DNA of 55,593 nt from a virus. Its lineage: Duplodnaviria; Caudoviricetes. The notes beneath the pieces were generated by a model, which ran no database searches, had not been told where the DNA came from, and saw only the letters and a list, made by a program, of their open reading frames with translations. Where the stretch lies: positions 1 through 55,593 of IMG/VR virus record IMGVR_UViG_3300048835_001002, one strand, 5' to 3'. Position numbers and translations under genes: made by a program. This document shows, one piece after another, positions 1-55,593 of the stretch. Every line of letters starts with the position of its first letter. Position 1 is the first letter of the stretch.

Positions 1-630
1 CTATCGCAGCACAATACTAAACGTACCTTCAAATTGGAGATAGAAACCGATCCCGTTCCCACCGTTTACTTCAAAAAGCATGGTAGACGTCCCAGATTTA
101 TTCGGGTTCGCGTAGAACAGCGGGTCAACAACATCTTGATTGAAATCCTTGATCGCAGACTTGTTTGCGCAAGTAATTCCAACCGTGAAATAGATTTCCT
201 TAGCATTTGGATATTTCTTGGGCTCGTTTATGACAGTCCAATCTGTCGGCAATCTCCCTCCTTCTGGGCTAAATATTGCCGTGCGATCTGTACCAGCTAC
301 AATGATTGGTACACCCACCCAAGTGATGGCAAATCTTGCAACGAATCTATCGTAGGGCACGATTCCGTCATATCCGAGAATCCTGCATCTTAAAAGTTGA
401 TTTGCATCGACTTTGATAGCAAACTGCCTTGCAGCCCGAACAAAATCATCCGTAAAGTAGGTCGATGGGCGCTGATCAATCAATTGACGAAGTTGAGCAG
501 AGTATTCCGAATCAGATTGATTGAGCGATCTTGCTTTTTCATCGAATTGCTGTAAGTATAACTTTTTGTTTGCGTTAAAATCTGTTTTTTTGGTTCTTGT
601 GACTTGCGAAGCCTTTGCTTTCTTAGCCAT
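1..630 (-). CDS. Hypothetical protein (209 aa)
   Basis: Complete ORF (TAG at 1-3) with a GAGG RBS before the ATG; no family recognised. Confidence 0.6.
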   Translation of the reverse strand: MAKKAKASQVTRTKKTDFNANKKLYLQQFDEKARSLNQSDSEYSAQLRQLIDQRPSTYFTDDFVRAARQFAIKVDANQLLRCRILGYDGIVPYDRFVARFAITWVGVPIIVAGTDRTAIFSPEGGRLPTDWTVINEPKKYPNAKEIYFTVGITCANKSAIKDFNQDVVDPLFYANPNKSGTSTMLFEVNGGNGIGFYLQFEGTFSIVLR

Positions 631-656
631 TAAATCCTCTTGGATAGGTTGACGAT

Positions 657-1100
657 ATGACTATTAAATTGTACATCATTTCGGCATTGCTTTGTCTATA
701 TTCGTGCGCTGATGACTCGAATAGGGTTTCTATTGAAAAGCCTGGAAGCGGATCACTCGCAAATAGTTCTTCGGAGAAATCTGTCATTATAAATTTCTCT
801 GTTTCTGAAGCTTTGAAACAGAAAAAGAGCCTAAAGGTATACGTAAGCGTATATAGGAACGCGGCTGAAACAGACGAAGTCACTTTTTCCATTTCCGATC
901 CTGTTTCTTTCGACATTTACGCGTCAGCATCATCCCCATCCAAAGCCAGGATCAGCTTTCTACATTTCGAAGACGACACAATAAAGGGCTACACGACTGG
1001 ACGATCTAATAGCAAATGTCCCGATCTTGATTTAAACCCGTTGAAAGGTACGGCCATTGACTTAAAACCTGATCTATTCTGCGAAATGGTGCCTGAATGA
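657..1100 (+). CDS. Putative lipoprotein
   Basis: N-terminus MTIKLYIISALLCLYSC-ADD is a hydrophobic signal ending in a lipobox-like Cys. Confidence 0.6.
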   Translation: MTIKLYIISALLCLYSCADDSNRVSIEKPGSGSLANSSSEKSVIINFSVSEALKQKKSLKVYVSVYRNAAETDEVTFSISDPVSFDIYASASSPSKARISFLHFEDDTIKGYTTGRSNSKCPDLDLNPLKGTAIDLKPDLFCEMVPE

Positions 1101-1395
1101 TATGAATGAGCGCCAATGTACCAAACTCATGCGACAGGCGGCCTGCGTTGACCCCTGGCTTGGTTCAATGTTAGCCTACCCTGGCAGATACAAGCAAAAC
1201 GACTTGGCTCTGTTGTGTGTGCTTCTTAAGCAAAGACATCAAAGCATTGATAGGCAATGAGTTTGCGCTTTTCTTGTTAGCAAACAATGGTGGTGTGTTG
1301 TATATAGGCTTTGATATCCTCGTATACCTTGATTGACAAGGTTTAAGAGACCATGTGATTTTGTAAAGCCTGCTGTGTGTGGGTTTTGTGCTTTT

Positions 1396-10139: not shown

Positions 10140-10141
10140 CC

Positions 10142-13109: not shown

Positions 13110-13113
13110 GCTG

Positions 13114-26464: not shown

Positions 26465-27049
26465 ATGAAATGCAGGGTCATCCGCACTGATGATGAATTG
26501 AAACAGTATGTCGATCGTTTCGCGGAATACTCCGGGATCGTTTATCCGTTTCAATACTTACGCCCAGCAAAAGTATTCGGAATGTTCGACTCCGAAAAGC
26601 TTGTAGGTGGCTTCATTCTTGCTGATGGCGACAATATCCGCTGGATGAAGCAGATTCCCCTCGAAAACAATGAATTTTTCAAATCTGTCGATCCGTCCAT
26701 GCTCGTCGAACTCAACGGGGTTTGGCTCGATGCCTCCCTCCGAAAATCCAACAAGACCATTGATTTCTGGTCATATGTGGCGAAGGAAATCGTTGCTTTT
26801 GGGAAGCCTATTCCCACGTTTGCATACATTACAGAAAGAAAAGGTCTAGCTGAACTCTATCAGCCCATAACTGTAGGGAAAATATTTGCAGGTCAAATGA
26901 CCACATCAGATAAACACCTGACAGTTTGCTATTCCAATCTGTTCAGATTCCGATATTTCAAAGTATTGTATGCTGGTCGTTACGTGACACGATACTTTAG
27001 AGACGGCGGGAAAAGTGAGCAGCACCTCCAAAAAGCAGCTCGAAGCTGA
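26465..27049 (+). CDS. Putative GNAT-fold acyltransferase (LuxI/FeeM-like fold possible)
   Basis: VFGMFDSEKLVGGFIL strand and VELNGVWLDASLRKS resembling GNAT motif A; CAGGAG RBS. Confidence 0.45.
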   Translation: MKCRVIRTDDELKQYVDRFAEYSGIVYPFQYLRPAKVFGMFDSEKLVGGFILADGDNIRWMKQIPLENNEFFKSVDPSMLVELNGVWLDASLRKSNKTIDFWSYVAKEIVAFGKPIPTFAYITERKGLAELYQPITVGKIFAGQMTTSDKHLTVCYSNLFRFRYFKVLYAGRYVTRYFRDGGKSEQHLQKAARS

Positions 27050-28399: not shown

Positions 28400-28966
28400 T
28401 TGGAAAAGATTATGATTGCCTTCAAGATTTTGTTGATTGTCCAGCTGGTAGCCTTCAGAGTGATTTACCGCAGCCAGATTTTTTGGAAGGATAAAAAGAC
28501 AAAATCTGAGAAAGATGTCAGCTGGCTTAAAAATCTTCTTCCTCCCATGCAATTGGGAATTTTCGTTGTTGTCGCATGGGCCATGCAGAGCGAAGGATCT
28601 GCTGTGCTCCTTGCAATTGGCAACTCTATATCGTTCTGCGGGCTGTCACTAATATTTTGGGCCAAAAAAACACTGGGAGAAAACTTCTCTGAGTGTACTG
28701 ATATGTACATTCCCAATTCGATTGTCACTGTAGGGCCTTATAAAGCCATCCGCCATCCGATATATACTGGAAATATTGTGTTTCTGTCAGGCCTGGCGAT
28801 CGCCTGTTCGTCGATCGTGCTTATAGCCATTACCATTTTCTTTGTAATTTTCTACTCAAAATCTGCATCAATTGAAGAGCAGGAACTGCAATTGAAGTAT
28901 CCCGATTATCAAAAGCACATAGAAGTCACTGGACGATTCCTGCCAAAAATCCTCAAAGTCAAATGA
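28400..28966 (+). CDS. Isoprenylcysteine carboxyl methyltransferase (ICMT/Ste14/PEMT) family membrane methyltransferase
   Basis: LGENFS, VTVGPYKAIRHPIYTG, EEQEL, YQKHIEVTGRFLP motifs. Confidence 0.9.
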   Translation: MEKIMIAFKILLIVQLVAFRVIYRSQIFWKDKKTKSEKDVSWLKNLLPPMQLGIFVVVAWAMQSEGSAVLLAIGNSISFCGLSLIFWAKKTLGENFSECTDMYIPNSIVTVGPYKAIRHPIYTGNIVFLSGLAIACSSIVLIAITIFFVIFYSKSASIEEQELQLKYPDYQKHIEVTGRFLPKILKVK

Positions 28967-31779: not shown

Positions 31780-32952
31780 TTGATGTCCGACGAGAATCTG
31801 GAAAACCCGCGCTTTGAAAAATTCGTCCACGAGATGATTGCGAGTTCAGATCACGGAGTGAACCTGAACTTTCTCCTGGGAGTCGAACCCCTTCTCGTTC
31901 CGATTCGAGAGAAGCGACGATATACCTACGGCGATTGTCTGCGGGTTGCCGAGAGGCATGAGGCGGCCATGGCAGATTTTCGCGGCATCAAACGATACCG
32001 AAAGGGTGACATAGCAGCCCAGGTGGCGAATGGCCTCATGATGTTCATGGAGTCGGCGGAAATGGGAGTGATCAATAGGAACATCAACTACTGTGCAGCC
32101 CGATGCATCGAAGGCGGCTTCGCTCCGGTTTACGTTCTCGGGAAAAATTTCTTCGATGATCTTTCGGATTCGGATGTTGGTGATGTGACCGTCTCGGTTC
32201 TCCCCGAATCATTCCGCGGTGTCCTGAAATTTCCAAAACCACTCCTTGATCAGGATGGCTATCAATTCGACGAAGTGATGGTGGTCATTGACAAGGCCGA
32301 TCTGGTCGAGAAGGTCGTTGGCATCACCAAAGGATCGATCACACTGCGTGACCGGGTCCTTCGAGGTGATGATATTGACGACTATTATCTGGGCATGTGC
32401 TGGCACGCGAAGGGGCCTGTCGGTCTTCAGCCAGGCGAGAGTAAACCCCGGGCCAAGATCGATGCCGGATACTTCTCCACCTTCCTTCCGAAAGATAAAA
32501 GCATCAAGATCGCTGAGCTTTTCGATCGCCACCAGTACCGAACGCTTGGTGCGCATAATATCGGTACGTTGGATATGATTTTTGAAGCCAGCAGATCTGA
32601 GCTGAACGACGGCTATACGAAGTCAATGAATTCTCTCTTTGCAGCCCTGGTCTACGTGCTTTCAGGCCGACCTGATTTGCGCTTTTACAAGAATCCAGTG
32701 CGGACACAGTCGCCGCAGTCCAGGACTCCCATCAAAGCCGACAAGCATTTGTCGTCGGCCGTCGATATCCATCTGGTCAATTACAGTTGGAAAAAAGATC
32801 CGGTCCATAAGAAAGGGGTCTGGCGGGTGAAGTGGCACAAGCGCCTTCAGCCCTATGGTCCTGATAAAAAGCTGACGAAGCTGGTCTATATCCAGCAACA
32901 TTGGCGAGAGCGATCGGCGCTCAAAGGTTCCTTAAATCCACCAGCCGAGTAA
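31780..32952 (+). CDS. Hypothetical phage protein (390 aa)
   Basis: Long ORF with basic C-terminal WRVKWHKRLQPYGP...VYIQQHWR motif. Confidence 0.7.
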   Translation: MMSDENLENPRFEKFVHEMIASSDHGVNLNFLLGVEPLLVPIREKRRYTYGDCLRVAERHEAAMADFRGIKRYRKGDIAAQVANGLMMFMESAEMGVINRNINYCAARCIEGGFAPVYVLGKNFFDDLSDSDVGDVTVSVLPESFRGVLKFPKPLLDQDGYQFDEVMVVIDKADLVEKVVGITKGSITLRDRVLRGDDIDDYYLGMCWHAKGPVGLQPGESKPRAKIDAGYFSTFLPKDKSIKIAELFDRHQYRTLGAHNIGTLDMIFEASRSELNDGYTKSMNSLFAALVYVLSGRPDLRFYKNPVRTQSPQSRTPIKADKHLSSAVDIHLVNYSWKKDPVHKKGVWRVKWHKRLQPYGPDKKLTKLVYIQQHWRERSALKGSLNPPAE

Positions 32953-33870: not shown

Positions 33871-34959
33871 TCAAGCTTTCTTGCGCATGGCCAGCAGCAG
33901 TCCAATGGACTGATCAACGACCGCTGTTTCATCGGGACCGAGTCCCGCAAGCTTTGCGCTAATTGAGTCGGTCTTGACCGAAACCCCTCTCAGTTCACGC
34001 TCAAGCGTTGTGGGAATGCCACAGACTTTCTCCCGCAGCTCGTTGATCTCTTCTTTGATCGCTCTGATCTCAACTTTAATCTCTGAAACGGTTTGAGAGA
34101 ACATGGCGATGATCTGCTTTTGCTGATCAAGCAGCGTTGTCATGGAATCCAGCAATAGATCGCTGGCAGGGTCATTTACAGCTTGCGTTACTTTTAGTGC
34201 GGGTTCAGGCGTTTCTTTGATAGGAGCCAGCTGAATGACAGTATCATCTTTTTCAGGTGCTTTGATTGGGGTGACAACGGCAGGATTGTTCATTTTCATC
34301 ACGACGTTCTCCGGGCAGGGTAGTTTGTGTTGAACCATGGCTTCGTATGCGCTCAGAGGAATTCCATTGAAGATAGTAACGCCACGCGATACGTCCTCCA
34401 GAAATCCTGAATTACGTCCACCATGCCATGCGCCGCTGAGTGCAGACTCCTGACCTTTTACAAGGAAGCGATCGAAGAACCTGGAAACATCCTTAAACTT
34501 GACCGTGTCGCCAACGGTTTTGAAATTGGCCAGAAGCCACCAAAGGCGAACAGATATTGGCACTGCGGAGCCGCTCCTCGGGCTTTCAGAGGGAATCTCC
34601 CGCAGCCTCATGAGGACATCGCTGCCACCAAAGACCTTTGATTCAAACTCCTCTTTGATGCCTGATACTCCTGACCCAGCAATAAATACGGGCTTTCCTG
34701 AGTAGAGTTCCCGAACCCGATGAAACATAAAGTGACTGGCGACCGTGGTAACAATGATAGCTGCATCGTGTCTTGTGGAGATGACTTTCGTGGGGGAGGC
34801 TTCTTCGAGATGTTCCGCTTTGAGCCAAAGGTCTTCGCAGTAGCGTATGAACTGATTGTCACTGGTCTTAAGGCCGGCGATCAGCACTGACCTTATCGAG
34901 CGCTGCTGATTCGCCTTTGGATCGGCGGCCCGCCAATCCTGACTTTGAGGGTGATTCAT
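33871..34959 (-). CDS. Hypothetical protein with DUF2325-like N-terminus and C-terminal coiled coil
   Basis: DAAIIVTTVASH...KPVFIAGSGVS pattern; heptad C-terminus. Confidence 0.6.
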   Translation of the reverse strand: MNHPQSQDWRAADPKANQQRSIRSVLIAGLKTSDNQFIRYCEDLWLKAEHLEEASPTKVISTRHDAAIIVTTVASHFMFHRVRELYSGKPVFIAGSGVSGIKEEFESKVFGGSDVLMRLREIPSESPRSGSAVPISVRLWWLLANFKTVGDTVKFKDVSRFFDRFLVKGQESALSGAWHGGRNSGFLEDVSRGVTIFNGIPLSAYEAMVQHKLPCPENVVMKMNNPAVVTPIKAPEKDDTVIQLAPIKETPEPALKVTQAVNDPASDLLLDSMTTLLDQQKQIIAMFSQTVSEIKVEIRAIKEEINELREKVCGIPTTLERELRGVSVKTDSISAKLAGLGPDETAVVDQSIGLLLAMRKKA

Positions 34960-44988: not shown

Positions 44989-45305
44989 GATTGACGTTTG
45001 ACCAGATTGCTGAGGAGGCGAAAGCCTACGCGAACCTGACTTCTGACCAGCTCGATGGCATGGCGACGGAGACGCTTCACGAGCAGCTCTCGCTTCGCCT
45101 TGTCGCCGAGGAGGAAGTGGGCGCCAGCAAACGGGCGCTCGCAGGTTCCGCCAATGAGCTTTTAAAGCGCATCCGCGCTGATGTCCTCTGCATCAATCGG
45201 GAGATCCGCCGCCGCCACGCGGCCGAAAAAGAGGAGAAAGCACAGAGTGAAAGGCTGAATCTTGAAGCTCTGCCTGAGCCTGTTGAAGTTGAAGCGGTCG
45301 GCTGA
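44985..45305 (+). CDS. Hypothetical protein
   Basis: Coupled helical ORF. Confidence 0.6.
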   Translation: MRLTFDQIAEEAKAYANLTSDQLDGMATETLHEQLSLRLVAEEEVGASKRALAGSANELLKRIRADVLCINREIRRRHAAEKEEKAQSERLNLEALPEPVEVEAVG

Positions 45306-45343
45306 TAGTCAGGCGATCCGTGTTGTACGAATTGGAGTTTTGA

Positions 45344-45628
45344 ATGTCTGCAGTTAAAGAAAAAGAGTTCGCTGATGTGCTGCTGCTTGTCGTGGCCATC
45401 GCAAAGTTTGTGAAGCGGGAGCTGGCTGGCGATGGTCTTCAGACCACCGATCTGATCAAACTCGCTGCTTCGCGTGAGTTCCAGTCGCGCTTCGTTGAGG
45501 CGATCGCAGGCGTGGGCGACATCCCAAAGGAGTTTTCGGGAATTACTGCCCTGGACGGCGTTGATCTGGCCATTTTTGCGCTGACAGCAGCCCGCGAAGT
45601 GATGTCAGATCAGGAGCGCGCGGCCTAA
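45344..45628 (+). CDS. Hypothetical protein (lysis cassette)
   Basis: GGAG RBS; TAATG coupling to the endolysin. Confidence 0.6.
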   Translation: MSAVKEKEFADVLLLVVAIAKFVKRELAGDGLQTTDLIKLAASREFQSRFVEAIAGVGDIPKEFSGITALDGVDLAIFALTAAREVMSDQERAA

Positions 45629-46125
45629 TGGACTTCCAGGCAGCCGTCAGGCTGGTCCTGGAGTTTGAAGGTGGGGGACGGGTTGTCTCCCACCCGAAAG
45701 ACCCGGGCGGGCTGACCAAATACGGAATTTCTCTCAAAGCGCATCCCGAACTCGGGCCAGCAGGGATCCGCAGCCTCACGGAAGAAGCCGCTATCGGTAT
45801 CTATCGGAAGGACTACTGGGAGGCGCTTGGGCTCAATCGCTTTCCACCAGAGCTGGCGCTCCCGCTCTTCGATGCTGCGGTCAACCTTGGGGTTGCGAAT
45901 GCCGCGAGAGTCTTTCAGAAGGCTTTGGGCCGTCTGGGCAGGGACCTTGTGGTCGATGGAGTTCTTGGTCCAAAGACGGTCGCAGCGTCGAAGCGTTATC
46001 CGCCACGCACTCTGCTCTCTGTCTTTCTCACCGAGCGGTTGGCTTACTATCGTAGGCTTGAAGCGTATGAAACATTTGGCTTTGGCTGGGATCGGCGTAT
46101 AATTGAGATCGCATTGGCTACATGA
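45628..46125 (+). CDS. Endolysin, glycoside hydrolase family 108
   Basis: EGGG..HPKDPGGLTKYGIS, FDAAVNLG, VDGVLGPKT, FGFGWDRR. Confidence 0.92.
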   Translation: MDFQAAVRLVLEFEGGGRVVSHPKDPGGLTKYGISLKAHPELGPAGIRSLTEEAAIGIYRKDYWEALGLNRFPPELALPLFDAAVNLGVANAARVFQKALGRLGRDLVVDGVLGPKTVAASKRYPPRTLLSVFLTERLAYYRRLEAYETFGFGWDRRIIEIALAT

Positions 46126-46132
46126 GGTCCGA

Positions 46133-46321
46133 ATGAACTCCGAATTGAAAAATCGCCTATTTGCCAGCGTGATCCAGGGTACCAAACCTGCTCCCATCGG
46201 CTTTCGCCAGCGAAAACGTTCACTGCTCTCTCTGGGCGGCATGATTACGGCCGTGGTCATGGCCATGGCGTTTATGGGGCTTTTCATGCTGCTCCTTTCC
46301 AAACTCCGGCCCCTGTTCTGA
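46133..46321 (+). CDS. Small membrane protein
   Basis: C-terminal hydrophobic helix; GAGG RBS. Confidence 0.55.
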   Translation: MNSELKNRLFASVIQGTKPAPIGFRQRKRSLLSLGGMITAVVMAMAFMGLFMLLLSKLRPLF

Positions 46322-46322
46322 G

Positions 46323-46565
46323 GTGTCCATGGCCCATCCAGGCCAGCTTCTGAAGTCCATCCGATTGAAGCATCGTCTGTCCATCCGAGATCTTGAACGC
46401 CTATCGGGGTATTCCCGTGGCTACATTCAGGATATCGAATCAAGCCGCCGCGTTCCCCGGATCTTCGCCGTGCGCTGCATTGCTGATGCGGTCACGGCTG
46501 ACGTTAAAGAGCGCACGCAACTGGTCCAGGCCTTCGCCGATGATCTGATGGGGGCTGTATGCTGA
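46323..46565 (+). CDS. XRE-family HTH protein
   Basis: LKSIRLKHRLSIRDLERLSGYSRGYIQDIESSRRVP. Confidence 0.85.
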   Translation: MSMAHPGQLLKSIRLKHRLSIRDLERLSGYSRGYIQDIESSRRVPRIFAVRCIADAVTADVKERTQLVQAFADDLMGAVC

Positions 46566-47137
46566 CCATTGCGGTAGCGGATGATGGCGATGGTTGGGTT
46601 AGGGAAAATTTCAGGAGCGAATCTCGCCGCGTTGCAGATGCTTTGAATCGGACTGCTGCGCTCGCGGTGGAAGAGATCCGGGCAGAGATGCCGCTGAAGT
46701 TCACCCTCCGAAACAGCTGGGTTCAAAAGGGTGTACGCTGGAATCGTGCGAATGCGAATGATCTCGAAGCCGAAGTCTACGACATCGACCCTTACATGCA
46801 AAAGCATGAGGACGGGCAGCACTATGAGCCGCAAGGCCATGTAGCGATTCCTTCGGCAGCAAGACCCACCAAGGGTTCCTCGATTCCGCGGAGCATGCTC
46901 CCCAATGCTCTTCGCGGCCGTTCCGATGTTTTTCGCTTCGATTTCTCAAAAAACTCCAGCTATAAGCCCTATCCGCTCAATGGGATTTTTCAGCGCGTTG
47001 GTGGCGGCAAATACTTCAAGGTTCTTTATCTCCTCAAGGACCAGAAGGATACGCGCTCCACCTGGAACTTCGCTGAAACTGTGGAGCGGGCTGTCGACAC
47101 TCACTTTCGCGGCAGCTTCGCCTCGGATTCAGATTAG
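46559..47137 (+). CDS. Putative gpZ-like neck / minor tail protein
   Basis: ALNRTA...MPLKFTL...YMQKHEDG...GIFQR...WNFAE pattern of phage gpZ-like proteins. Confidence 0.55.
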   Translation: MLTIAVADDGDGWVRENFRSESRRVADALNRTAALAVEEIRAEMPLKFTLRNSWVQKGVRWNRANANDLEAEVYDIDPYMQKHEDGQHYEPQGHVAIPSAARPTKGSSIPRSMLPNALRGRSDVFRFDFSKNSSYKPYPLNGIFQRVGGGKYFKVLYLLKDQKDTRSTWNFAETVERAVDTHFRGSFASDSD

Positions 47138-47161
47138 AAATTTTTGGAGATCATCAGGAGA

Positions 47162-48037
47162 ATGCTAATTGGCTTGGATCTTTTTTCGGGCTATGGCGGC
47201 ATCTCACTCGGACTCGCCGAGTGGGTCCGTCCCGCCCTTTACTGCGAAATCGAGCGTTACCCCCAGTCCATCCTGCTCTCCCGCATGGCCGATGGACAGC
47301 TGGCCCGGGCACCGATCTGGGACGACATCCGAACACTCAGCGGCCGCGGATGGCGAGGTGCGATCGACATCGTCTACGGCGGCTTTCCTTGCCAGGACAT
47401 CTCTCTTGCAGGAACTGGCCGCGGTCTGGACGGCGAGCGCTCGGGACTTTTCTTTGAAATCGTGCGGCTGGCCGAGGAAATCGAGCCCACGTTCGTATTT
47501 CTCGAAAACGTGCCCGCGATCCGGACTCGCGGTTTGGAGCGGGTTGTCGGGGAATTTTCCCGCCTCGGGTATGACTGTCGGTGGCGAACTCTTTCCGCTC
47601 AAGCTGTCGGAGCCCCGCACGTCCGAAACCGCTGGTTCCTGCTTGCTGCCCACCCCGACCGCCTCAAACGCTGGCACCAATCGCTCGCCAGGCAGCAGCA
47701 ATGTGCGTCCTTCGCTCCACCACATGGCGAGGCACAACCTGTGGCCGACGCCGACCGTTCACGGGAATTATCAGAACAAGCAGCAGGGCGGATCGCAGCT
47801 GATCGGACTGGCGACAGCGGTACGTCTCTGGCCGACGCCGCTCGCGCGGGACTGGAAGTATCCGGGCGGAAACCGAAAGACCATTCCGCTCAGTGGGCGC
47901 GTTGGTGGTCCTCTGAATCCGGAATTCGTAGAATGGCTCATGGGTGTTCCAATCGGGTGGACCGAATCAAAGCCCTGGGCAATGGGGTTGTGCCGGCGCA
48001 AGTCCGCGAAGCTTTCCGCAGCATGATTTTTGGATAA
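47162..48037 (+). CDS. C5 cytosine DNA methyltransferase, alpha subunit
   Basis: Motifs I DLFSGYGG, IV GGFPCQD, VI FLENV, VIII PHVRNRWF, X RIKALGNGVVP; motif IX missing in this frame. Confidence 0.92.
   Translation: MLIGLDLFSGYGGISLGLAEWVRPALYCEIERYPQSILLSRMADGQLARAPIWDDIRTLSGRGWRGAIDIVYGGFPCQDISLAGTGRGLDGERSGLFFEIVRLAEEIEPTFVFLENVPAIRTRGLERVVGEFSRLGYDCRWRTLSAQAVGAPHVRNRWFLLAAHPDRLKRWHQSLARQQQCASFAPPHGEAQPVADADRSRELSEQAAGRIAADRTGDSGTSLADAARAGLEVSGRKPKDHSAQWARWWSSESGIRRMAHGCSNRVDRIKALGNGVVPAQVREAFRSMIFG
47571..48026 (+). CDS. Overprinted methyltransferase beta subunit (alternative frame)
   Basis: Three (L/W)PTP repeats and motif IX-like LNPEFVEWLMGVPIGWT in the +1 frame. Confidence 0.7.
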   Translation: MTVGGELFPLKLSEPRTSETAGSCLLPTPTASNAGTNRSPGSSNVRPSLHHMARHNLWPTPTVHGNYQNKQQGGSQLIGLATAVRLWPTPLARDWKYPGGNRKTIPLSGRVGGPLNPEFVEWLMGVPIGWTESKPWAMGLCRRKSAKLSAA

Positions 48038-48318
48038 AAAATCTTAAAGTCGTATGCTCATGTGAAATAAGTGGTGGTTTCGAAACCCGGTCCAAGACCA
48101 TAGTACTGACCAAAATGTATCAAAAAGGTAGGATCGCTAAAAATAACCAGCCATCAATCCCGTGAAATGCAATCAATAGATTGGGATGGCGCAATGGTCA
48201 CCGCGCCATCCATTTAAAACAAGTCGACGCATTTATCAGGGCCAAGAAAAATGCGCCGCAACCAATGAACGTCCGAGCGCCCAGTAGGAAAGTAGGTAGC
48301 GATTTGGAAATAAGAGTT

Positions 48319-48337
48319 GGCCGTCTTAAAGACGGCC
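48319..48337 (-). terminator. Hairpin downstream of the 48349-49080 gene
   Basis: GGCCGTCT-taa-AGACGGCC just after the stop codon. Confidence 0.45.
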
Positions 48338-48348
48338 GCTTTCCATAA

Positions 48349-49080
48349 TTAAAGCTGACTGATGGACCAGGACAATTCATTGATAGAGACCGACGAAGAT
48401 ACTCCAAAAGTCAGGGTCATGTATAAATCTTCATTGCATTTGCTAATGTCGTAGCTCGGATGGCTGAGACTCACGTTTTGAGCGCCACCAATACTTAAAG
48501 TTGATCTAGCAATGCCGCCAGGATTGGTTGTTGTCGAACCGTCCGGGTTTGTAATACCGCAACCGAATCCAATCTGTACTGATTCCTGTCCACCTGGAGA
48601 GGGAAATATGGTTGGGTTGACAGAAGCATACACTGAAATAGTTCTGTTACCAGCTGTGTAAAACGAGATCTCGTCCTTGGGAATCAGGGTAACCTTGATT
48701 TGGACCTTCAAGCCTTCTCTGCTAATAAAATCTGTTCCGTCTAGCAGTTTCGTTGCGCCCGGCACCGGACGCGATACTGTTAAACCTGTGCCGTTATAAG
48801 ACGTGGAAAAATCCAAAGCCTTTGGCCAGGGAAAGACTCTGGTCTCATATTTCACTGTTCCACTGATGTTTTGATCCACGAATGATGAGTTCCATTCCTT
48901 CGTACCAAGTCTCTCATTTGTAAGTCTGAAGTTTGAAATAATCTGATCTGTATTGCTTTGATCAAACTTCAAAATCACTCGATCAGCATTTCCAACTTGG
49001 TCTTTGGTAACTGCACCAAAGCAGGCAGTTGACAAGGTAACGAGAGCAGCAGAAATGCACTTCATAGTGAAACCATTCAT
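48349..49080 (-). CDS. Secreted beta-rich hypothetical protein
   Basis: Signal peptide MNGFTMKCISAALVTLSTACFG-A; Ser/Thr/Gly-rich; AAGGA RBS. Confidence 0.7.
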   Translation of the reverse strand: MNGFTMKCISAALVTLSTACFGAVTKDQVGNADRVILKFDQSNTDQIISNFRLTNERLGTKEWNSSFVDQNISGTVKYETRVFPWPKALDFSTSYNGTGLTVSRPVPGATKLLDGTDFISREGLKVQIKVTLIPKDEISFYTAGNRTISVYASVNPTIFPSPGGQESVQIGFGCGITNPDGSTTTNPGGIARSTLSIGGAQNVSLSHPSYDISKCNEDLYMTLTFGVSSSVSINELSWSISQL

Positions 49081-49300
49081 GGGTATTCCTTTCAAAGCAA
49101 GGCGAGATAATATCTTTATTTCGAGTCACTTTCGAGACGGGCGGGACTTTATCTCAAAGTTGGAATCAAAATCAAGACAATAAGTCGTTTTGATTTATTG
49201 ATTCAAATAGCTGATTGCAAACGGATTGGGGAAAATTATCAACGTAAATTTGGTGGCTATGTCATGGAAAAGCGCAGAGTTAATCAGAAAGTATTTGGGG

Positions 49301-49350
49301 TTGACTAAATTCCTATGAGGTGTGTTATAAGGGCGCGGACGCCTTTATAA
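49301..49350 (+). promoter_or_regulatory. Candidate promoter/operator of the toxin operon
   Basis: TTGACT at 49301, TG-n-TATAAG (long spacer), overlapped by the IR TTATAAgGGCG-cgga-CGCCtTTATAA (49325-49350). Confidence 0.4.
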
Positions 49351-49373
49351 TTAACCCATTCAGGGAAACTGCT

Positions 49374-50381
49374 ATGATAAAATCCATCCATATTACAACG
49401 GCTTCTGTCGCAATAACTTTCCTGTCCGCCTTTTCCGCGCAAGCTCAGACAATCTTTGCGCCATCCAAAGACAATTGCCGCCCTTATGTTTCTGATTCAT
49501 TCAAGTTCTGCAAGGCAGAGCCTGTCACGGTAGCTTTTGCCAAAGTCAGTGATACTACGCTTGAAATTCTGGAAGGCCTGCCTGTCGAAAATTCAATGTC
49601 GTACAAGCTTTTTTGCCCATCGTGGCCAGATGCTCAGCCTGTAGAGCTTAAATCGGCAGGCCGATCCCAGACTTTGCTGGCATCAAGCAAGGCCGTAGTG
49701 GAGTCGGTAAAAGAGACGGTTTCACACTCTGACCTTGTGACCTCTGCATATCTATTTACTCCGCTGATCAAGAGGGAAGCCACGATAGAAGCCAATTGCA
49801 AGATGGAAGTCATTTCAAACGTAACAACTCCAAATCTTGCTTATTTAAAAGCAATTGCGGACCTTCTTAAAGAGGATTTTTCTTCCCTGAAAGACCTTGT
49901 TGCCAAGCTCGAAAAGGCATCTGAATTGCCAGAGACATGGTCAGCTCTAGTCGCTTCAACGCAAACAATTGAGGATTCAGCCACTTCACTCGATTTTGAA
50001 AAAGCCCAGCTTGACGCAGAACTTCAGGAGCTTTTGGGATTGCCGGAAAGCGAGCTGACATCCGAAGATCAGAACAGGAAAGAAATGCTTCCGTACCTCA
50101 TTGAGAAGTATACTTTGATATCAAGCAACCTCCGTAAGGCAAAGGATGATATCGGAAAAACACTTAAAATCGCGGAGAAGTGCGGACTAGGCGCGCCAGA
50201 TGCTTTCTGTATCCAATCGGTAAATAAGCTTGTGAATGACATAAAAGGGGAAGTTTCAACACGAAGCACACGAATGACTAAATTTTCCACATTTCTTTCT
50301 CTTGAATCCGGCCGCCTGAAAGATGTCGCAAAAAGATTGTCCAAACAGCTCGCGGATCTTTCAGCTGAAGTCAACCCCTGA
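49374..50381 (+). CDS. Secreted protein with Cys-containing N-domain and long coiled coil
   Basis: Signal peptide ending SAQA-Q; six Cys; helical C-terminal half. Confidence 0.75.
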   Translation: MIKSIHITTASVAITFLSAFSAQAQTIFAPSKDNCRPYVSDSFKFCKAEPVTVAFAKVSDTTLEILEGLPVENSMSYKLFCPSWPDAQPVELKSAGRSQTLLASSKAVVESVKETVSHSDLVTSAYLFTPLIKREATIEANCKMEVISNVTTPNLAYLKAIADLLKEDFSSLKDLVAKLEKASELPETWSALVASTQTIEDSATSLDFEKAQLDAELQELLGLPESELTSEDQNRKEMLPYLIEKYTLISSNLRKAKDDIGKTLKIAEKCGLGAPDAFCIQSVNKLVNDIKGEVSTRSTRMTKFSTFLSLESGRLKDVAKRLSKQLADLSAEVNP

Positions 50382-50402
50382 TAGAGGTGGGAGTGTAGCG
50401 TT

Positions 50403-51659
50403 ATGTTTAAAAACTTAGCTATTTTTATGGCTCTATGGGGGTTGTCAACCTTTCAGGCAAAAGGTGACGAAGGGGCAGATTTGCTTGCGAAAAGAAGCGA
50501 GCTTCAACGGCAGAAGGAAGAAATTCAAAAAATAGATCTTCAGATTATCCGTGTTACTACAACATGGCAGAGGATCAGCAGCGATTTTCAAACGCAGGCA
50601 AGTCTTCTGCAGTCAAATCTAGCCTCTATTGAAAAACTTGCTGCGGCGCAAAGTTCAGAAATGGATAAGCTTTCAAAGTGGATGACTGACAAATATGAGA
50701 TTGTAAAAACAGCTTCAGATTCGGCCGCTTTTAGATCTCTTATGGAAGAATATCGCACATTACGCATGGGAAACGGCTGCCGGTCATCGGGTCTTGATGA
50801 TCAATTTAGGGCCGTTGTTGGCAACCTGGACGGCATGCGTAATCTCAAAAACGAAGCGGCTGACCTTGATAAAAACTGGAATTTGCCTCCCGATTTTGAC
50901 GAAATGAGGAAGGCTATCAGGGACGGCACGGAAGTGTTGTCTGTCAACTTCGAGTCGGCAAAAAAATCAGTTACTGCAGTGATGCCTTTGATGCTTTCCT
51001 CCGATGTTTGCGACGCGTTTCTGCAATTTGATGTCGTCATCTCTCTATCGCAAACAATTGCTGAGGTGAACAAAGCAGCATCTTCAATAGATGCAATTGA
51101 TTTTACCAGGTTTCTCAAGGACATTGATAATCTGGATAAAGAAAGAAATCTGCTCAAGCAGGTTCGGCGGGTAGCAACCTCCATGGGCGGGCGCAACATC
51201 ACCAACATTCGGCTTGGAAAGCTGGGTGAGACCCTTCAGTTCGCTGCAACCTATCAGAATCAGATTGATGCTCTCTCGACTTCGTTGAAGTCCCTTAAGT
51301 TTGTGGGCGACGCGGAACGTAATGAAGCCATGGCATCGCTAAACAATACTACGGAAGGCATGGCAAAAGAACTGGAAATTTCCAAAGTGTTCACTGCTGC
51401 AGGTAAGCGGACATTTTTGTTGACAAGATCACAAAATGTTCAAACAAGGCTTTTCAAACTGAACTCAATGCAGCTTGACTCCGTAAAAGCTGATCTCTAT
51501 CAAAAGGTCAAATCCTATTGTCAAACCGAAATCAGTATGACGCCTACGGGAAGGTATTTATTGCCTGCCAATCTCGGCTTTGAGCAGTCCATTAAACTCG
51601 ACGAAAAATTTGCGAAGGCCCAGCAGATGCTGCAGAAGATTGATGGGGTCGAAATATGA
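50403..51659 (+). CDS. Secreted all-helical coiled-coil protein
   Basis: Signal peptide MFKNLAIFMALWGLSTFQAKG-D; heptad-rich throughout. Confidence 0.75.
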   Translation: MFKNLAIFMALWGLSTFQAKGDEGADLLAKRSELQRQKEEIQKIDLQIIRVTTTWQRISSDFQTQASLLQSNLASIEKLAAAQSSEMDKLSKWMTDKYEIVKTASDSAAFRSLMEEYRTLRMGNGCRSSGLDDQFRAVVGNLDGMRNLKNEAADLDKNWNLPPDFDEMRKAIRDGTEVLSVNFESAKKSVTAVMPLMLSSDVCDAFLQFDVVISLSQTIAEVNKAASSIDAIDFTRFLKDIDNLDKERNLLKQVRRVATSMGGRNITNIRLGKLGETLQFAATYQNQIDALSTSLKSLKFVGDAERNEAMASLNNTTEGMAKELEISKVFTAAGKRTFLLTRSQNVQTRLFKLNSMQLDSVKADLYQKVKSYCQTEISMTPTGRYLLPANLGFEQSIKLDEKFAKAQQMLQKIDGVEI

Positions 51660-52831
51660 AAAACATGAAAATGGCTTTTTCCCTTTGTCTTGTCGGCTGG
51701 TTTTACTCCTCACTGGCCCTTAGTAGCGAAATGTTTCGAGCAATTATTGATGAGCATGCATGCTATGCCACTGTCTATTCCGACAGTGAAATTCTAATGC
51801 CAAGTCACTGCGTGTCGTTGCCTTACGAAAATGTGTCGCTTGAAAGCATTGGTGTAAAGAGAATTGAGAACGTTCGGGAATATCTGAATGAAAATCGTGA
51901 TGTCTTTCAAATCGGCAGCGAGAGAATGCTGATTATTCGGCTGTCTGAAAAAGTTTTTGAGAATTCAAAACCTTTAACGATGAAATCTCCCAGACCAGGC
52001 AAGCTGGACAGCATAGATGGAACAAGGAGTTCGTGTACAGTGGCATACATCGAGCATAGAAAGGGATTCATGGCCTATGAATGCCAGAGCTGGCACGGCG
52101 AGTCCGGACGTTTAGTATATCAGAACGGCACTCCGGTCGGATTTCACCTTGGACGCCTGAAATCCAGTGGTCTTGCAATTGCGGCCCTGGATAAAGGGCC
52201 TTTTGTGGAACTTCGCACGGAATTTGGCAACGATTTTGAACCGGAGAAGCTTAAGGTCAGCTGCTGCAAGAAATTGAAAAAAGCTGTCGATAAGGTTGGT
52301 CAGGCCATACAGGATGGAGTCGATTCGGTTGGCAAAGTGATTGAGAATGTGAAAAACGAGATCAAACGCCTTGAGGATGATGTCAAAACCCTTCCGAGAG
52401 TTTTTTCGGCGGAATATCTTAAAGAAAAAACTGCATCAATAAAAGGTCCACAACTTCCTGAATTCAAGACTTCGGATGTGAAATGGCCTGAAATGAACAT
52501 GGACTTTGTGGCAATCCCTGAACGTTGGTTTAAGAAAGCAGGCAAGCGATGGGATCAGGCTGTTTATATGTTCAAGGAACTTGGCAGGGCGGCCGAGGTG
52601 TGGTGGGAGATACTCAAGGACACAAAAGTTGGGGCACCAAATCTCTGCCAAGGCTGCGAGGATCCTCCTCCTCGTGATATCTGCGCACCATCAGCGACTC
52701 AACAGGAAAAAAAGGAGTGCATTTCGAATATGGAAAAGGCACTCGATGTGGCGACTCAGCAAAAATTCCAAACTGTTGAAGGGCTTCGTCCATGGCTAAA
52801 CGATCAAAAAGCCAAAGTTGGAGTGGAGTGA
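51656..52831 (+). CDS. Secreted trypsin-like serine protease domain fused to a helical C-terminal domain
   Basis: Signal peptide; CYAT...MPSHCV (His), CQSWHGESGRLV (Ser), PVGFHLG; catalytic Asp not evident. Confidence 0.65.
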   Translation: MKNMKMAFSLCLVGWFYSSLALSSEMFRAIIDEHACYATVYSDSEILMPSHCVSLPYENVSLESIGVKRIENVREYLNENRDVFQIGSERMLIIRLSEKVFENSKPLTMKSPRPGKLDSIDGTRSSCTVAYIEHRKGFMAYECQSWHGESGRLVYQNGTPVGFHLGRLKSSGLAIAALDKGPFVELRTEFGNDFEPEKLKVSCCKKLKKAVDKVGQAIQDGVDSVGKVIENVKNEIKRLEDDVKTLPRVFSAEYLKEKTASIKGPQLPEFKTSDVKWPEMNMDFVAIPERWFKKAGKRWDQAVYMFKELGRAAEVWWEILKDTKVGAPNLCQGCEDPPPRDICAPSATQQEKKECISNMEKALDVATQQKFQTVEGLRPWLNDQKAKVGVE

Positions 52832-55350
52832 TGAGAATCCATGGCGCAAAAGACAGAATCCAGGTCTATTCGAGCCTAACCTTCGTATGCTCTTTAATAG
52901 TGTTAATATTGTCGGTCACATGCGGCAGGGCTGAGCAGGAGAGGTCAGAACTGCTCCACGCCGGTGATCCCTTTGAAGTGCCTAATAGTTGGAATATCTG
53001 TAACTCGGAACCTTATGACCTTTATCTTACCCTTGCGCATACTGACTATAGTAACAGGTATTGGCCGGTAGGGCAGGACCCATACACAGGACAAACATTG
53101 GAGGCAGCAAGTTCAGAGATACATGGCTGGATAAAGCTGCCAACTGGAGTTTGTACTGATGTAGGGCCAATTTGGAAGATTGGGCTGATTGTTTTAAGAG
53201 GTGGTCAGGGAGCTTACGAAGCCAAGGGTGGCGCTTTTGCTCAGGCAGGTTCATCCGTCTGTGTAAATTCGAGTTTGGCGAGCAATAAGACAGTTCCCTG
53301 GACAGCTATCGTAAGTGGTTATGATAGCATGAGACCTTATCTAAGTTGTCCGATGGGTACAGTTTCAAAAACCCAATTTATCTACTCGGACCTTCCTAAT
53401 CGCCAATGTGTCAATGATTCAAGGCGCATTGATTGTAAATTTACTCTGAGCGGTGGCAGAGTCTATGACGATGGTGATTACCTTTACCTCGACGAAAATG
53501 GCGATTCCGCAGAGCTTGATGAGAAAATTAAAGAACTAAATAAAAAGGTTTTGGACGCAGAAAGTGAATTAAAGCAGTGTAAGGCCAAGGCGTCCTGGAT
53601 AGCTTCCAAGAAAATCCTTGAATTGGATCCGAATGCATTCGCCGAGCTTGCCAGGGTTTGTGGTGAATCTGCCACTGTCAAGGAGCTGAAGGAAGAAGTT
53701 GATCGAATTCAGAAAGAGATAAAGGCTTTTATTCTGGCTGTTTCTCAGGAATTAGACGATGTTTACCGGACCGTTATTGCAATTGCTGGAAAGCTGGGCG
53801 TAACTCTTCCGTTGGAAGACGACTATAAAGCAGAAGCTCTCGAAAATATCGTTTATCCTTCTTCGTCACTCAATCCCAATGCACAAGGGTTTTATTCTGC
53901 TTTATTCAATCAATATCAGGAGGTTTTCGATGCTTCATACACGACAAGCAAGAAAAAGTTTCTGACTTCAGTACTCGGGTTCACATACACGTTTCCTGTT
54001 TTTGGACGAAACCTTGTGTCAGAAGACCCTTTAAGTCAGGAAAAGTTTCTTGACTTCAAGTACGCTGCAGACAAAGCAGAAGAGTATTTTTCAAAGGTGG
54101 ATTTCAACCTGGATGAATACGGTTATCCAATCGACAGCCCTGTGCCCGAGGACATTAAGAAGGCAATTCGGGACGATATCAAGCCCTATGCACCCTCGCA
54201 GGCGATGGCTCTGGATGACGAGCTGAAAAAATGGGAAGGAACACTTACGGATAAACAAAAGCTTGCGCTGGAAGCTGTCAGATTTCTGGGCAAAGCCTTC
54301 CATCAGACAGTCTTAAGTCTTCCTGAAGAAGTATCTGCAGTTCATGCCCGACTCAAATCGGTAGCGGATGGTGCGATTGAGGCTGTTAAGGACGTAACGA
54401 AATGTTTGGTCAAAGTAGGGGCATCCGGGGACTTCTCTGACTGGTACGAAGTCACAGTGGGGAAGGACTACTGTGATGGGTCTGAGCTTTCGTTTGCTGG
54501 AAGGGCTGCAACGGCAGCGGGACTTGTGGTCGGCAGTGGAAAAGCATGGCGTATACTTGCTGATGGCCTGGGTATTGCGACCACAAAGCTTGGTCGAGTA
54601 GCTCATTTCGTTTCAGATGCACTGGAAAGCGGTCGTCGGAAAATTCCAGATCTTAAGGAAAGTGAAGTCAAGGAAGTCTTGAGAGATCTCGATCCTTCTT
54701 TCGGGTGTAATCTTTTGTCTTCCAGATATTTGAAATCAAGAACTAATGCGATAGATTTTGTTTTTGGAGTTTCAACAGCCTTTGCTAATAGTTCCGAAGA
54801 AGATTGTTTCAGGCAAATTTTCACAGAAATCCTTGATAATTCTGGGAAATATTGGAGTTTAGCAGGTTATAAGCATGTTCTTCGAGGAGAGCTTTACGAT
54901 GTAGGTGCAGCTACTAAACTTGCAGGTGGTCTGCATACCCAAAAAGGCTTAAATGAATTTGTTCTTCGCAATAAGAGACATGGCTTTACTTATGAAATAG
55001 TGGAAGTGTCCACTTTTTCCGAACGTAATCTTGATCCAAATAAGTTATTGGTGCGAAAATTACCAAACGGTGTTCGAGAGGTTCAGTTTCCGCGTGAAGC
55101 TTTTTTCAATTCGGATTCCTCACAAATTTCGCTGCCTACAGCTGATGGTCGCCGAATAAAGCATATAAAATCCCTTTGGCCTGAAAGTTTTACTCCGGAA
55201 GATATTGCTACAGCAGCGAAGGAAGCTATTACGAAAGCTGGTCCGAATCCTCCTGGCGTCCTTCAAGGAGTATACAAGAACATTCCTTTTACCTTATATT
55301 TTAGGGATGGTAAGATAAGGTCAGTTTTTCCAAAATTCTCGGAGAGCTAA
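52831..55350 (+). CDS. Polymorphic toxin: signal peptide, DUF1036-like domain, helical stalk, PT-TG, C-terminal EndoU RNase
   Basis: ICN...GWIKLPTGVC; SDWYEVTVGKDYCDGSELSFAGR (PT-TG); KHVLRGE...GGLH...NGVR...KSLWPESF...RSVFP (EndoU His-His-Lys). Confidence 0.8.
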   Translation: MRIHGAKDRIQVYSSLTFVCSLIVLILSVTCGRAEQERSELLHAGDPFEVPNSWNICNSEPYDLYLTLAHTDYSNRYWPVGQDPYTGQTLEAASSEIHGWIKLPTGVCTDVGPIWKIGLIVLRGGQGAYEAKGGAFAQAGSSVCVNSSLASNKTVPWTAIVSGYDSMRPYLSCPMGTVSKTQFIYSDLPNRQCVNDSRRIDCKFTLSGGRVYDDGDYLYLDENGDSAELDEKIKELNKKVLDAESELKQCKAKASWIASKKILELDPNAFAELARVCGESATVKELKEEVDRIQKEIKAFILAVSQELDDVYRTVIAIAGKLGVTLPLEDDYKAEALENIVYPSSSLNPNAQGFYSALFNQYQEVFDASYTTSKKKFLTSVLGFTYTFPVFGRNLVSEDPLSQEKFLDFKYAADKAEEYFSKVDFNLDEYGYPIDSPVPEDIKKAIRDDIKPYAPSQAMALDDELKKWEGTLTDKQKLALEAVRFLGKAFHQTVLSLPEEVSAVHARLKSVADGAIEAVKDVTKCLVKVGASGDFSDWYEVTVGKDYCDGSELSFAGRAATAAGLVVGSGKAWRILADGLGIATTKLGRVAHFVSDALESGRRKIPDLKESEVKEVLRDLDPSFGCNLLSSRYLKSRTNAIDFVFGVSTAFANSSEEDCFRQIFTEILDNSGKYWSLAGYKHVLRGELYDVGAATKLAGGLHTQKGLNEFVLRNKRHGFTYEIVEVSTFSERNLDPNKLLVRKLPNGVREVQFPREAFFNSDSSQISLPTADGRRIKHIKSLWPESFTPEDIATAAKEAITKAGPNPPGVLQGVYKNIPFTLYFRDGKIRSVFPKFSES

Positions 55351-55356
55351 TTGCAT

Positions 55357-55593
55357 ATGGGCACGAGACCAGATGTCGTTACATTTATTGAAAGCTTGAT
55401 GCCTGAGAAGCCAGCTGTTGGTTGGAGTAATGAAGGCATGCTGGAAATGCTAAGAGATTACGCTCTTGAGAACCCGGAGTGCTTGAGTGCGCTGCATGAA
55501 TATTTCAAGAGCTATGAAACGAATGATATCGTTGACATTATTGTGAAAGGAACCATTGCAGCTTGTTTGGTAGCTTGCGATGAAAATTTTCAC
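55357..55593 (+). CDS. Probable cognate immunity protein (runs off the window)
   Basis: ATG 6 nt after the toxin stop; open acidic frame to the window end; no signal peptide. Confidence 0.6.
   Translation, partial: MGTRPDVVTFIESLMPEKPAVGWSNEGMLEMLRDYALENPECLSALHEYFKSYETNDIVDIIVKGTIAACLVACDENFH

Follow-up and report, generated by a model that had tools for sequence, protein, structure and literature searches.

Near the right-hand end of the 55,593-bp IMG/VR record IMGVR_UViG_3300048835_001002, which is labelled a provirus and of which ~1.7-48.0 kb comprises a tailed-phage genome, lies a cassette of six genes that appears to encode an exported toxin together with its partners; we refer to the whole of this stretch of DNA as the window. 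We think it rather probable that the cassette is a previously undescribed multi-component, Sec-dependent polymorphic toxin system of Oligoflexia (Bdellovibrionota), situated in the cargo slot of an N15-like plasmid-prophage. It consists of a divergent gene for a secreted protein (beta), genes for three exported partners (A, B, and C), a gene for a large polymorphic toxin, and a small immunity-like open reading frame (ORF). The finding is confirmed and well supported as a multi-component variant of the polymorphic toxins, and it is probably phage-borne.

The gene positions and signal-peptide-like N-termini that an earlier note on this DNA had reported for four clustered genes and a divergent fifth were recovered from the ORFs (Table 1) and from a simple hydropathy script, which used the Kyte-Doolittle scale over a 10-residue stretch and also over 19-residue windows. 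In all five larger proteins, one to three Lys or Arg residues are followed by a 10-residue hydrophobic stretch with a mean Kyte-Doolittle value of 1.9-3.3, no second 19-residue window exceeds 1.6, and such N-termini are kept in orthologues; the small ORF at 55351-55593 has no signal-peptide-like N-terminus by the same script. The B and C genes overlap by 4 nt, with the start of C in the stop of B, and the C and toxin genes by 1 nt, with the stop of C in the ATG of the toxin, while the TTG start of the small ORF lies 1 nt past the toxin stop. These overlaps suggest translational coupling of B, C, and the toxin. None of the six ORFs matched a PHROG, NCBIfam, or curated Pfam family at cut-off, and scans of family libraries found no CdiA, Rhs, LXG, MafB, or MuF domain in the cassette proteins and no secretion-system gene, in agreement with the earlier note, which had remarked on the lack of such carriers.

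Table 1. Features of the cassette, of the toxin protein, and of the remainder of the window. Lengths are in amino acids (aa); residue numbers refer to the 839-aa form of the toxin.
Feature	Position (strand)	Description
Divergent "beta" gene	48349..49095 (-)	237-248 aa, secreted, beta-rich; likely start ATG 49065 (MKCIS...)
Partner A	49374..50381 (+)	335 aa from 49374; alternative start 49320; signal peptide ...AQA/QT (cleavage at the slash)
Partner A, parts		Cys-bearing N-domain ~25-150; helical C-half
Partner B	50403..51659 (+)	418 aa; signal peptide, then all-helical rod
Partner C	51656..52831 (+)	391 aa; signal peptide, predicted chymotrypsin-fold protease domain ~25-190, helical C-domain with SCCKK
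Polymorphic toxin	52831..55350 (+)	839 aa from ATG 52831; 852 aa if the start is 52792
Toxin, signal peptide	residues 1-31	ends in conserved Cys; lipobox-like LSVTC/G
Toxin, N-domain	residues ~45-225	DUF1036-like
Toxin, helical region	residues 226-520	
Toxin, PT-TG module	residues 521-600	
Toxin, PT-TG core	54427..54546 (+)	residues 533-572; Pfam PF14449
Toxin, linker	residues 601-675	
Toxin, EndoU-type tip	54856..55347 (+)	residues 676-839 (H682, H702, K780); putative RNase, PF14436
Immunity-like ORF	55351..55593 (+)	first 81 of ~106 codons, the window end cuts the rest; lacks a signal peptide
Junction of phage backbone and cassette	48028..48348	terminator-like hairpin 48319-48337 (-), behind the beta gene
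ParA, ParB, RepA-like region	20749-25915	
Left end	1..1391	non-conserved, low GC; ORFs lacking a family

Judged by its sequence features, the 839-aa protein is a lipobox-bearing polymorphic toxin in the sense of Zhang et al. 2012. A word-indexed search with it retrieved five homologues, among them a protein of O. tunisiensis (77% identity), and a profile of six sequences compared with 1.84 billion representatives matched 200 proteins at E<=1e-3. Among 150 listed matches we picked 76 carrier-type hits by eye, and the 70 of these with at least 400 aa were scanned for known families. Many matches of 600-830 aa cover only carrier positions ~200-585, and others cover only the tip. By eye, most full-length carrier relatives begin with a signal peptide, some with a lipobox-like Cys; this Cys closes the h-region in 7 of 8 aligned carriers and may be read as a lipobox, and many relatives, including the carrier of genome G057, have plain signal peptides that lack a terminal Cys.

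The C-terminal part had been proposed to hold a PT-TG motif and an EndoU-type nuclease. In Pfam, the 852-aa form matched PT-TG at E=0.015 and 15.7 bits (residues 546-585; cut-off 23.5) and EndoU_bacteria at E=1.2e-3 and 19.6 bits (residues 693-847; below the gathering score), and the tip alone scored 24.5 bits against EndoU PF14436 (cut-off 25.3). Relatives reach these cut-offs: PT-TG was matched at E<=0.01 in 43 of the 70 carriers and at or above cut-off in 23 of them, and EndoU was matched at E<=0.01 in 9 of 17 tip relatives, and the relative P0067 scored 28.6 bits. PT-TG is also the most conserved block of 41 aligned carriers (D534, D537, E540, G544, C548, G550, G568, and R574), and because this block aligns across the carriers and the relatives score, the window protein likely belongs to PT-TG by transitive homology. 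H702, K780, and an NGV...P motif are invariant across the 17 aligned tips, and H682 occurs in the window tip as well as in the majority of those that extend across its column; we infer the assignment of the catalytic Lys. A profile search of PDB with the tip gave the EndoU enzyme Nsp15 as its sole match, weak (E=0.15) and aligned over both His motifs, and the profile of the whole toxin gave one chance-level match there. We conclude that the tip is probably a divergent EndoU-type ribonuclease (RNase), and the conserved His and Lys residues and the scores of the relatives uphold the proposed pairing of PT-TG with EndoU.

The N-terminal domain had been called DUF1036-like, and matches among relatives agree with this. 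DUF1036 (PF06282) had no match at E<=1 on the window toxin itself; it was matched in 4 of the 70 relatives, two of them above the cut-off of 23 bits (P0094, 33.1; P0007, 25.7; P0132, 22.5; P0011, 19.5), and the toxin of a related phage sequence (G132, described below) scored 21.9 bits. The matches of the relatives and of the G132 toxin align with window toxin residues ~45-110.

Comparison of these relatives shows that the carrier (N-domain, helical region, and PT-TG) is conserved and that the C-terminal toxin is exchangeable. Recognised toxin tips occur in 13 of the 70 carriers and belong to 7 families: WHH/Colicin-DNase (4), EndoU (3), CdiA_C (2), and one each of barnase-type Ribonuclease, YwqJ-deaminase, Ntox10, and Ntox30. 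The carrier of G057 ends in a Toxin-deaminase tip (32.5 bits), bringing the Pfam toxin families that serve as tips on this one carrier family to 8, and the small gene downstream of it encodes a SUKH-1 protein. Exchange can be followed in individual pairs. P0003 is 100% identical to the window protein in the N-domain, 96% in the helical part, and 99% in PT-TG, and identity then drops to 72% in the linker, 68% at the start of the tip, and 42% at its end; P0005 shows the reverse, with 26-27% identity in the carrier and 58-71% in the tip. Overall, where the upstream part is 85-100% identical, the tips share as little as 36-42% identity. The small downstream gene, which we predict to be the matching immunity gene, changes with the tip. 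The window's small ORF is 81% identical to a 106-aa ORF after the O. tunisiensis toxin, one small immunity-like family lies directly after 5 of 5 EndoU-tipped carriers examined, and the carrier of G066 has both a different tip and a different small ORF downstream. The role of immunity protein that had been assigned to this cytoplasmic ORF thereby gains support, and the check on homologous operons that the earlier note had suggested came out as it anticipated, with N-terminal parts and partner genes kept while tips and immunity genes vary.

The order beta-A-B-C-toxin-immunity is also found in O. tunisiensis (locus L002), G066 (L009), G057 (L010, with a B homologue of 434 aa), and G071, where the cassette is split over two contigs. 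Profile searches covering 131 genomes of the O. tunisiensis phylum placed the carrier in 25 genomes (53 places), A in 12, B in 6, and C in 19, with C full-length in 4 and represented by its protease domain only in the others. Leaving aside contig-edge fragments, B occurs at 9 places, all of which have A directly upstream and 7 of which have a PT-TG carrier downstream; one further place runs off its contig, and the remaining one has secreted proteins of 647 and 675 aa and a DUF7878 ORF downstream. A-B pairs are essentially limited to loci of this kind. At the beta position, L002, L009, and L010 each have a gene for a secreted protein of 219-302 aa; because identity among these is only 15-20%, homology of beta is not demonstrated. 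Across distant genomes A, B, and C are themselves 21-25% identical, and the comparison shows that these three Sec-exported partners travel with this carrier type from genome to genome.

Further carrier loci, 20 of which were fetched from the 53 carrier places, mostly have other partners. Secreted partner genes lie upstream in 18 of the 20: in 15 the gene directly upstream belongs to a family that we call B2 (~405-490 aa), preceded in 12 of these 15 by an A2 gene (~300-335 aa), two loci have the order A-Bx-Cx, in which Cx corresponds to the helical C-part of C, and one has a 733-aa coiled-coil-trypsin-helical protein. The two loci L045 and L050 have no partner genes. Profile comparison with hhalign related B to Bx at 94% probability; A2 and B2 have no Pfam family. 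We also observed two loci, L146 (G057:C62:139000-150500) and L147 (G030:C17:1-9500), in which A-B is followed, instead of by C and a PT-TG carrier, by a 604-647-aa protein with a Cx-like N-terminus; in L146 a family-less secreted protein of 675 aa and the DUF7878 ORF come next. These loci may combine the same partners with another type of toxin.

Among the partners, C can be assigned a likely function. H51, an acidic residue (E/D) at ~99, and S150 within GxSG are conserved in 5 of 5 sequences, the acidic residue being Glu, not Asp, in the window. Residues 17-183 reached an Atlas feature score of 0.93 to Trypsin/Trypsin_2 clusters, which we treat as a lead only, with structural TM scores of 0.33-0.49, and 12 of the 14 weak PDB matches of the C profile (E 0.19-1) were chymotrypsin-fold proteases; Pfam gave no protease match. 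We consider C to be probably an active trypsin-like protease, and the triad pattern and fold lead agree with the protease call of the earlier note. Just behind the protease domain, an invariant Ser-Cys-Cys-Lys/Glu-Lys motif was seen in all five sequences (window 52259-52273, C residues 202-206).

The other two partners had been described as long and helical and likened to multi-component alpha pore-forming toxins. Word-indexed searches yielded at least five proteins for B and at least four for A. The helical description suits B, whose AlphaFold2 model (9 sequences; mean pLDDT 83.6, pTM 0.41) is all-helical with 13 helices, the longest being the first (82 residues, 22-103). It does not suit the whole of A, which has a Cys-bearing N-domain in front of its helical C-half; C35, C46, C81, C142, C270, and C279 are invariant in 7 sequences. 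A has no family, an Atlas search with it gave no usable feature match and structural rows at TM 0.25-0.40 on a poor model, and its profile matched coiled-coil noise only in PDB. Foldseek returned nothing for the B model at E<=1e-3, and a wide structural search (VIA) returned generic three-helix and other helical bundles only. A pore-forming-toxin fold (ClyA/Hbl/Nhe, XaxAB/YaxAB) was considered for B and none was seen among these generic bundles, which is not proof that the folds differ; the analogy with pore-formers is unsupported.

The phage that adjoins the cassette belongs, by its replication protein and partition genes, with the N15/PY54/VP882/phiHAP-1 group of telomere phages. PHROG matches account for large terminase, portal, head protease, major head (capsid) protein, tail fibre, and tape measure genes, and for ParA, ParB, a 1074-aa replication protein, exonuclease, SSB, RusA, and endolysin, with a C5 DNA methyltransferase gene ending at 48037. 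The replication protein matched phrog_4913 at E=6.9e-136, and its best named tblastn matches were phiHAP-1, VP882, PY54, and N15-like phages. PHROG and Pfam revealed no integrase among ORFs of at least 280 aa, and no match that would identify a protelomerase among the unassigned ORFs of 362-454 aa (27015-28379, 31780-32952, and 33871-34959); those of 390 and 454 aa had no tblastn match to phages.

Right of the methyltransferase gene, the guanine-cytosine (GC) content drops at 48 kb from 0.55-0.58 to 0.44-0.46, and conservation with related phage records stops. Two related IMG/VR records are 84-86% identical in nucleotide sequence to window 37.3-48.0 kb, and their matches end at 48027 and 47920, at the end of the methyltransferase gene. 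In G132, homology is lost at 48027 and returns ~19-20 kb later with window positions 1392 and 1735, in the terminase genes. The intervening DNA encodes ArdA, a Vitellogenin_N/HEAT protein, several secreted helical proteins, a 655-aa lipoprotein toxin with a PT-TG match of 28.4 bits and a canonical LAAC lipobox, and a 130-aa ORF. A relative of the phage is also present in O. tunisiensis, at 2.03-2.08 Mb, with 45% identity in the replication protein and 72% in the terminase. At the corresponding position it has ~30 kb of low-GC DNA (L149/L150, G001:C1:2037000-2077000), which includes genes for a 1381-aa RHS/YD-shell protein, an MmeI-type restriction-modification enzyme, a RES-domain protein, and a 290-aa lipoprotein that, by eye, has an N-terminus similar to the carrier N-domain. 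Because of this flanking homology in related phages, we take a variable cargo slot of this phage family to extend from the methyltransferase gene (or the preceding gene) to the terminase genes, and the left end of the window probably makes up the remainder of that cargo region. The start of the window does not continue the cut immunity gene, so that a simple circular permutation does not apply. Phage carriage is supported by the different DUF1036/PT-TG cassette that G132 has in the same slot, and we regard it as likely that the window cassette is phage cargo. The suggestion that a phage-plasmid carries the system, made in the earlier note from the window alone, has thus gained comparative support from the G132 slot, the N15-type replication protein, and ParAB.

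Several further features of these regions were noted. The cargo of G132 holds a second kind of cassette (L144, G132:C1:15800-35799, positions 3388-13126), whose partners are Cys-rich/helical secreted proteins of 302 and 279 aa, a 397-aa helical lipoprotein, a 601-aa protein, and a 614-aa Vitellogenin_N and HEAT protein with a lipid-carrier-like fold that adjoins the lipoprotein toxin; no partner in this set matches the A, B, C, A2, or B2 profiles. The O. tunisiensis cargo also encodes four tandem paralogous secreted proteins, and two copies of a homologue of window 46559-47137 bracket ~21 kb of it. The window contains a gene for a PEMT/ICMT-type membrane methyltransferase (28400-28966; PF04191, E=1.6e-11) in a low-GC patch at 26-30 kb. 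A tRNA scan of the window found none, and promoter and terminator scans were at chance level (9 terminators found vs 7.9 expected). The chromosomal cassette of O. tunisiensis is adjoined by a Bd3614-like deaminase gene (PF14439, 47.8 bits; L002 4018-4740, minus strand).

We infer a model of assembly and delivery in which all five larger proteins would cross the inner membrane by Sec, and the toxin would be lipidated at the conserved Cys and sent to the outer membrane or shed on vesicles. The immunity protein would stay in the cytoplasm and block the RNase before export or after re-entry. Outside the cytoplasm, A, B, and the helical C-domain of C might bind the N-terminal and helical parts of the carrier, giving a particle that is either exposed on the surface or released. 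C could then use its protease domain to cut the toxin near or behind PT-TG and so free or activate the tip; alternatively, the cleft of that domain could hold an extended segment of the toxin, as UmbA does. The tip would finally enter a non-immune neighbouring bacterium and cleave RNA, and the benefit to the phage would be an armed lysogen. The conserved PT-TG core has been modelled as having no secondary structure (PMC13483458); such a core could plausibly be cut by a protease or bind in its cleft. P0040, P0138, and P0146, in which Trypsin or M48 peptidase domains are fused to PT-TG or EndoU parts, point the same way. As a broader and more tentative proposal, which we think somewhat doubtful, A, B, C, and the lipoprotein carrier might form a toxin particle or surface spike that is the diderm counterpart of umbrella particles, built from unrelated parts; the subunit families (type I, A/B/C; type II, A2/B2) would co-diversify with the carrier N-domain, and telomere-type phage-plasmids would move whole cassettes between Oligoflexia through the slot next to the packaging genes.

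Several observations weigh against the reading of the cassette as a multi-component exported toxin. The window toxin's own EndoU and PT-TG scores lie under the gathering cut-offs, Thr at -1 of its lipobox is unusual, the fold of B is generic, and searches with A gave nothing usable. With hhalign, A2 vs A reached 17% and B2 vs B 22% probability, and homology of the type II partners is not demonstrated. L046, L049, and L148 lack the protease domain and retain the helical C-part alone, and no protease was detected in type II cassettes; because the protease domain is dispensable in some cassettes, processing by C cannot be a general requirement. Family scans revealed no outer-membrane translocator in the cassette, and the same lack of an outer-membrane secretion gene would fit an alternative in which the toxin, as a lipoprotein like SitA, is transferred together with outer-membrane material (vesicles, membrane exchange), and A, B, and C are periplasmic chaperones or maturation factors. 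This explanation draws further on the Cys that ends the signal peptide in most of the aligned carriers, the lipobox of the G132 toxin, the lipid-binding-type Vitellogenin_N/HEAT protein beside it, and the description of SitA proteins as lipoproteins whose N-terminal escort domain is combined with a nuclease tip (PMC8546572). We nevertheless find it improbable, given that many relatives, the G057 carrier among them, lack the signal-peptide Cys, and that SitA loci as described in that source have no partner genes. It is more improbable still that the toxin-immunity pair alone constitutes a bacteriocin released by Sec and the type II secretion system (T2SS), with the upstream secreted genes being neighbours that have another role. 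"T2SS-only" polymorphic toxins are a recognised broad class (PMC3482391), and the two loci lacking partner genes would agree with this; against it, partner order and strand are kept even though the partners are as divergent as described above, B, C, and the toxin are apparently translationally coupled, and A-B pairs are essentially limited to such loci. A different target could also be imagined. The phylum of O. tunisiensis includes predators, and the system might act on prey or eukaryotic cells in predation or grazing defence, with immunity as self-protection before export, as for barstar and barnase; the partners include a protease that is probably active, and a Sec-exported RNase needs immunity whatever its target. 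We consider this reading very improbable, because the variety of tips and immunity proteins (EndoU, WHH, CdiA_C, deaminases, SUKH) and the near-identical carriers that swap tips are the hallmark of interbacterial polymorphic toxins.

The placement of the cassette on the phage calls for separate consideration, since it could instead be host chromosome beside an integrated prophage, included through an imprecise record boundary. This is unlikely in our view, though it deserves more weight than the alternatives above, and several points that tell against phage carriage tell in its favour. The linkage of cassette and phage is seen in one record only, which bears the provirus label, shows a GC step relative to the phage backbone, and cuts the immunity gene at its right end; contigs from 4 public DNA runs were short, and none bridged 48.0-48.3 kb or the right end. 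The closest copy, that of O. tunisiensis, lies at 5.63-5.65 Mb of its contig in a chromosomal low-GC island (0.47-0.50 vs 0.53-0.58 in its flanks) with no phage genes within 10 kb and no synteny between its flanks and the window outside the cassette. The six patterns used picked up no toxin relative among 2.9 million viral contigs, tblastn with the toxin likewise found none among 50,697 phage and 72,556 plasmid records, and scans of metagenome contigs with the window toxin and with P0004 returned nothing. In the sediment-metagenome run X1, pieces of window 45000-55593 were 97.6-99.3% identical in the cassette and ~86-90% identical in the phage genes, and because these identities differ, cassette and phage backbone may not share one history; one contig of that run departs from the window sequence at 47982. 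Against a host origin, the G132 slot has phage genes on both sides and a related toxin within it, the phage relative in O. tunisiensis likewise has low-GC cargo there, no integrase was seen among ORFs of at least 280 aa, and ParAB and the N15-type replication protein suggest a plasmid life style. We therefore retain phage cargo as the preferred interpretation of the cassette's location.

How PT-TG toxins that have only a signal peptide are exported and delivered in diderms is raised as an open point in a recent survey (PMC13483458, section 15). The cassette offers a concrete, testable answer, in the form of a conserved carrier accompanied by three to four families of exported partners, one of them a probably active protease, and a named isolate, Oligoflexus tunisiensis Shr3, carries it. 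The slot is informative as well: telomere-type, plasmid-like phages of an understudied phylum appear to carry different polymorphic toxins in one place (the present cassette, a second one with PT-TG, and an RHS toxin), which bears on how phages arm their hosts.

In the full-text literature within reach, which did not extend to subscription-only papers and some supplements, we found no description of this cassette. One point of contact is the survey just mentioned, the Pandoomain analysis of PT-TG (Becerra Soto et al. 2026), whose toxins likewise have PT-TG in front of the tip. It describes "PT-TG singleton" and "PT-TG toxin" architectures in diderms, with export unexplained, and lists Oligoflexus WP_141735931.1 (519 aa) as a PT-TG singleton; its searchable text and supplements contain no DUF1036/PF06282, Bdellovibrionota, lipoproteins, or trypsin partners, and the cassette is not described there. 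Polymorphic toxins that use Sec alone ("T2SS") form a broad, established class, and the accessible text of PMC3482391 makes no mention of trypsin.

The earlier note had proposed a distinct delivery class. It had left out the known Sec-dependent multi-protein systems (umbrella, S8-PTS, and SitA), against which the claim has to be measured; the cassette appears to be a new multi-component variant of Sec-exported polymorphic toxins. Compared by description, SitA of myxobacteria (Vassallo et al. 2017, PMC5562445; 2021, PMC8546572) resembles the toxin in being a diderm lipoprotein with an escort domain, a nuclease tip, and cytoplasmic immunity, and differs in its dependence on TraAB outer-membrane exchange and in lacking A/B/C-type partners and PT-TG in the 2021 account. 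MuF toxins (Jamet et al. 2017, PMC5576092) also pair a polymorphic toxin with immunity on temperate phages, but are described as fused to a phage head-morphogenesis protein and as having no signal peptide, whereas the cassette toxin is independent, predicted to be Sec-exported, and located in a cargo slot. S8-PTS (Li, Tan & Zhang 2022, PMC9424270) shares a Sec signal, a non-toxic N-domain, a polymorphic tip, immunity, and a secreted serine peptidase, which in S. aureus activates the toxin outside the cell according to Mwangi et al. (bioRxiv 10.1101/2025.07.24.666436). Its peptidase is a subtilase (S8), whereas C has a predicted chymotrypsin fold and none of the six cassette proteins matches Peptidase_S8; its carrier is BetaH rather than DUF1036-like/helical/PT-TG, and it is reported as having three components in monoderm hosts, in contrast to the five or six of the cassette.

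The umbrella particles of Streptomyces (UmbA/UmbB/UmbC; Zhao et al. 2024, PMC11062931) come nearest in overall design. Both have a helical or coiled-coil secreted toxin with an exchangeable tip, an immunity gene, and several exported partners, one of them with a trypsin fold, which in C is predicted, and neither appears to use a dedicated contact-dependent secretion machine. The parts differ: UmbC is described with a TAT signal and ALF repeats, whereas the window toxin (MRIHGAKDRIQ...) has no twin arginine and no match to a Pfam repeat family; UmbA combines an inactive trypsin fold with lectins, whereas C keeps the triad pattern, has a helical domain, and has no lectin match in Pfam; and UmbB is a beta-sandwich, whereas A and B belong to unrelated families. 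The Umb hosts are monoderm, and we found no sequence homology to the Umb partners. None of umbrella, S8-PTS, SitA, and MuF systems appears to share the partner families or the carrier of the cassette, SitA and MuF being set apart by their descriptions. If a particle does form, it would represent a second, independently evolved instance of the umbrella-toxin principle, in bacteria with an outer membrane.

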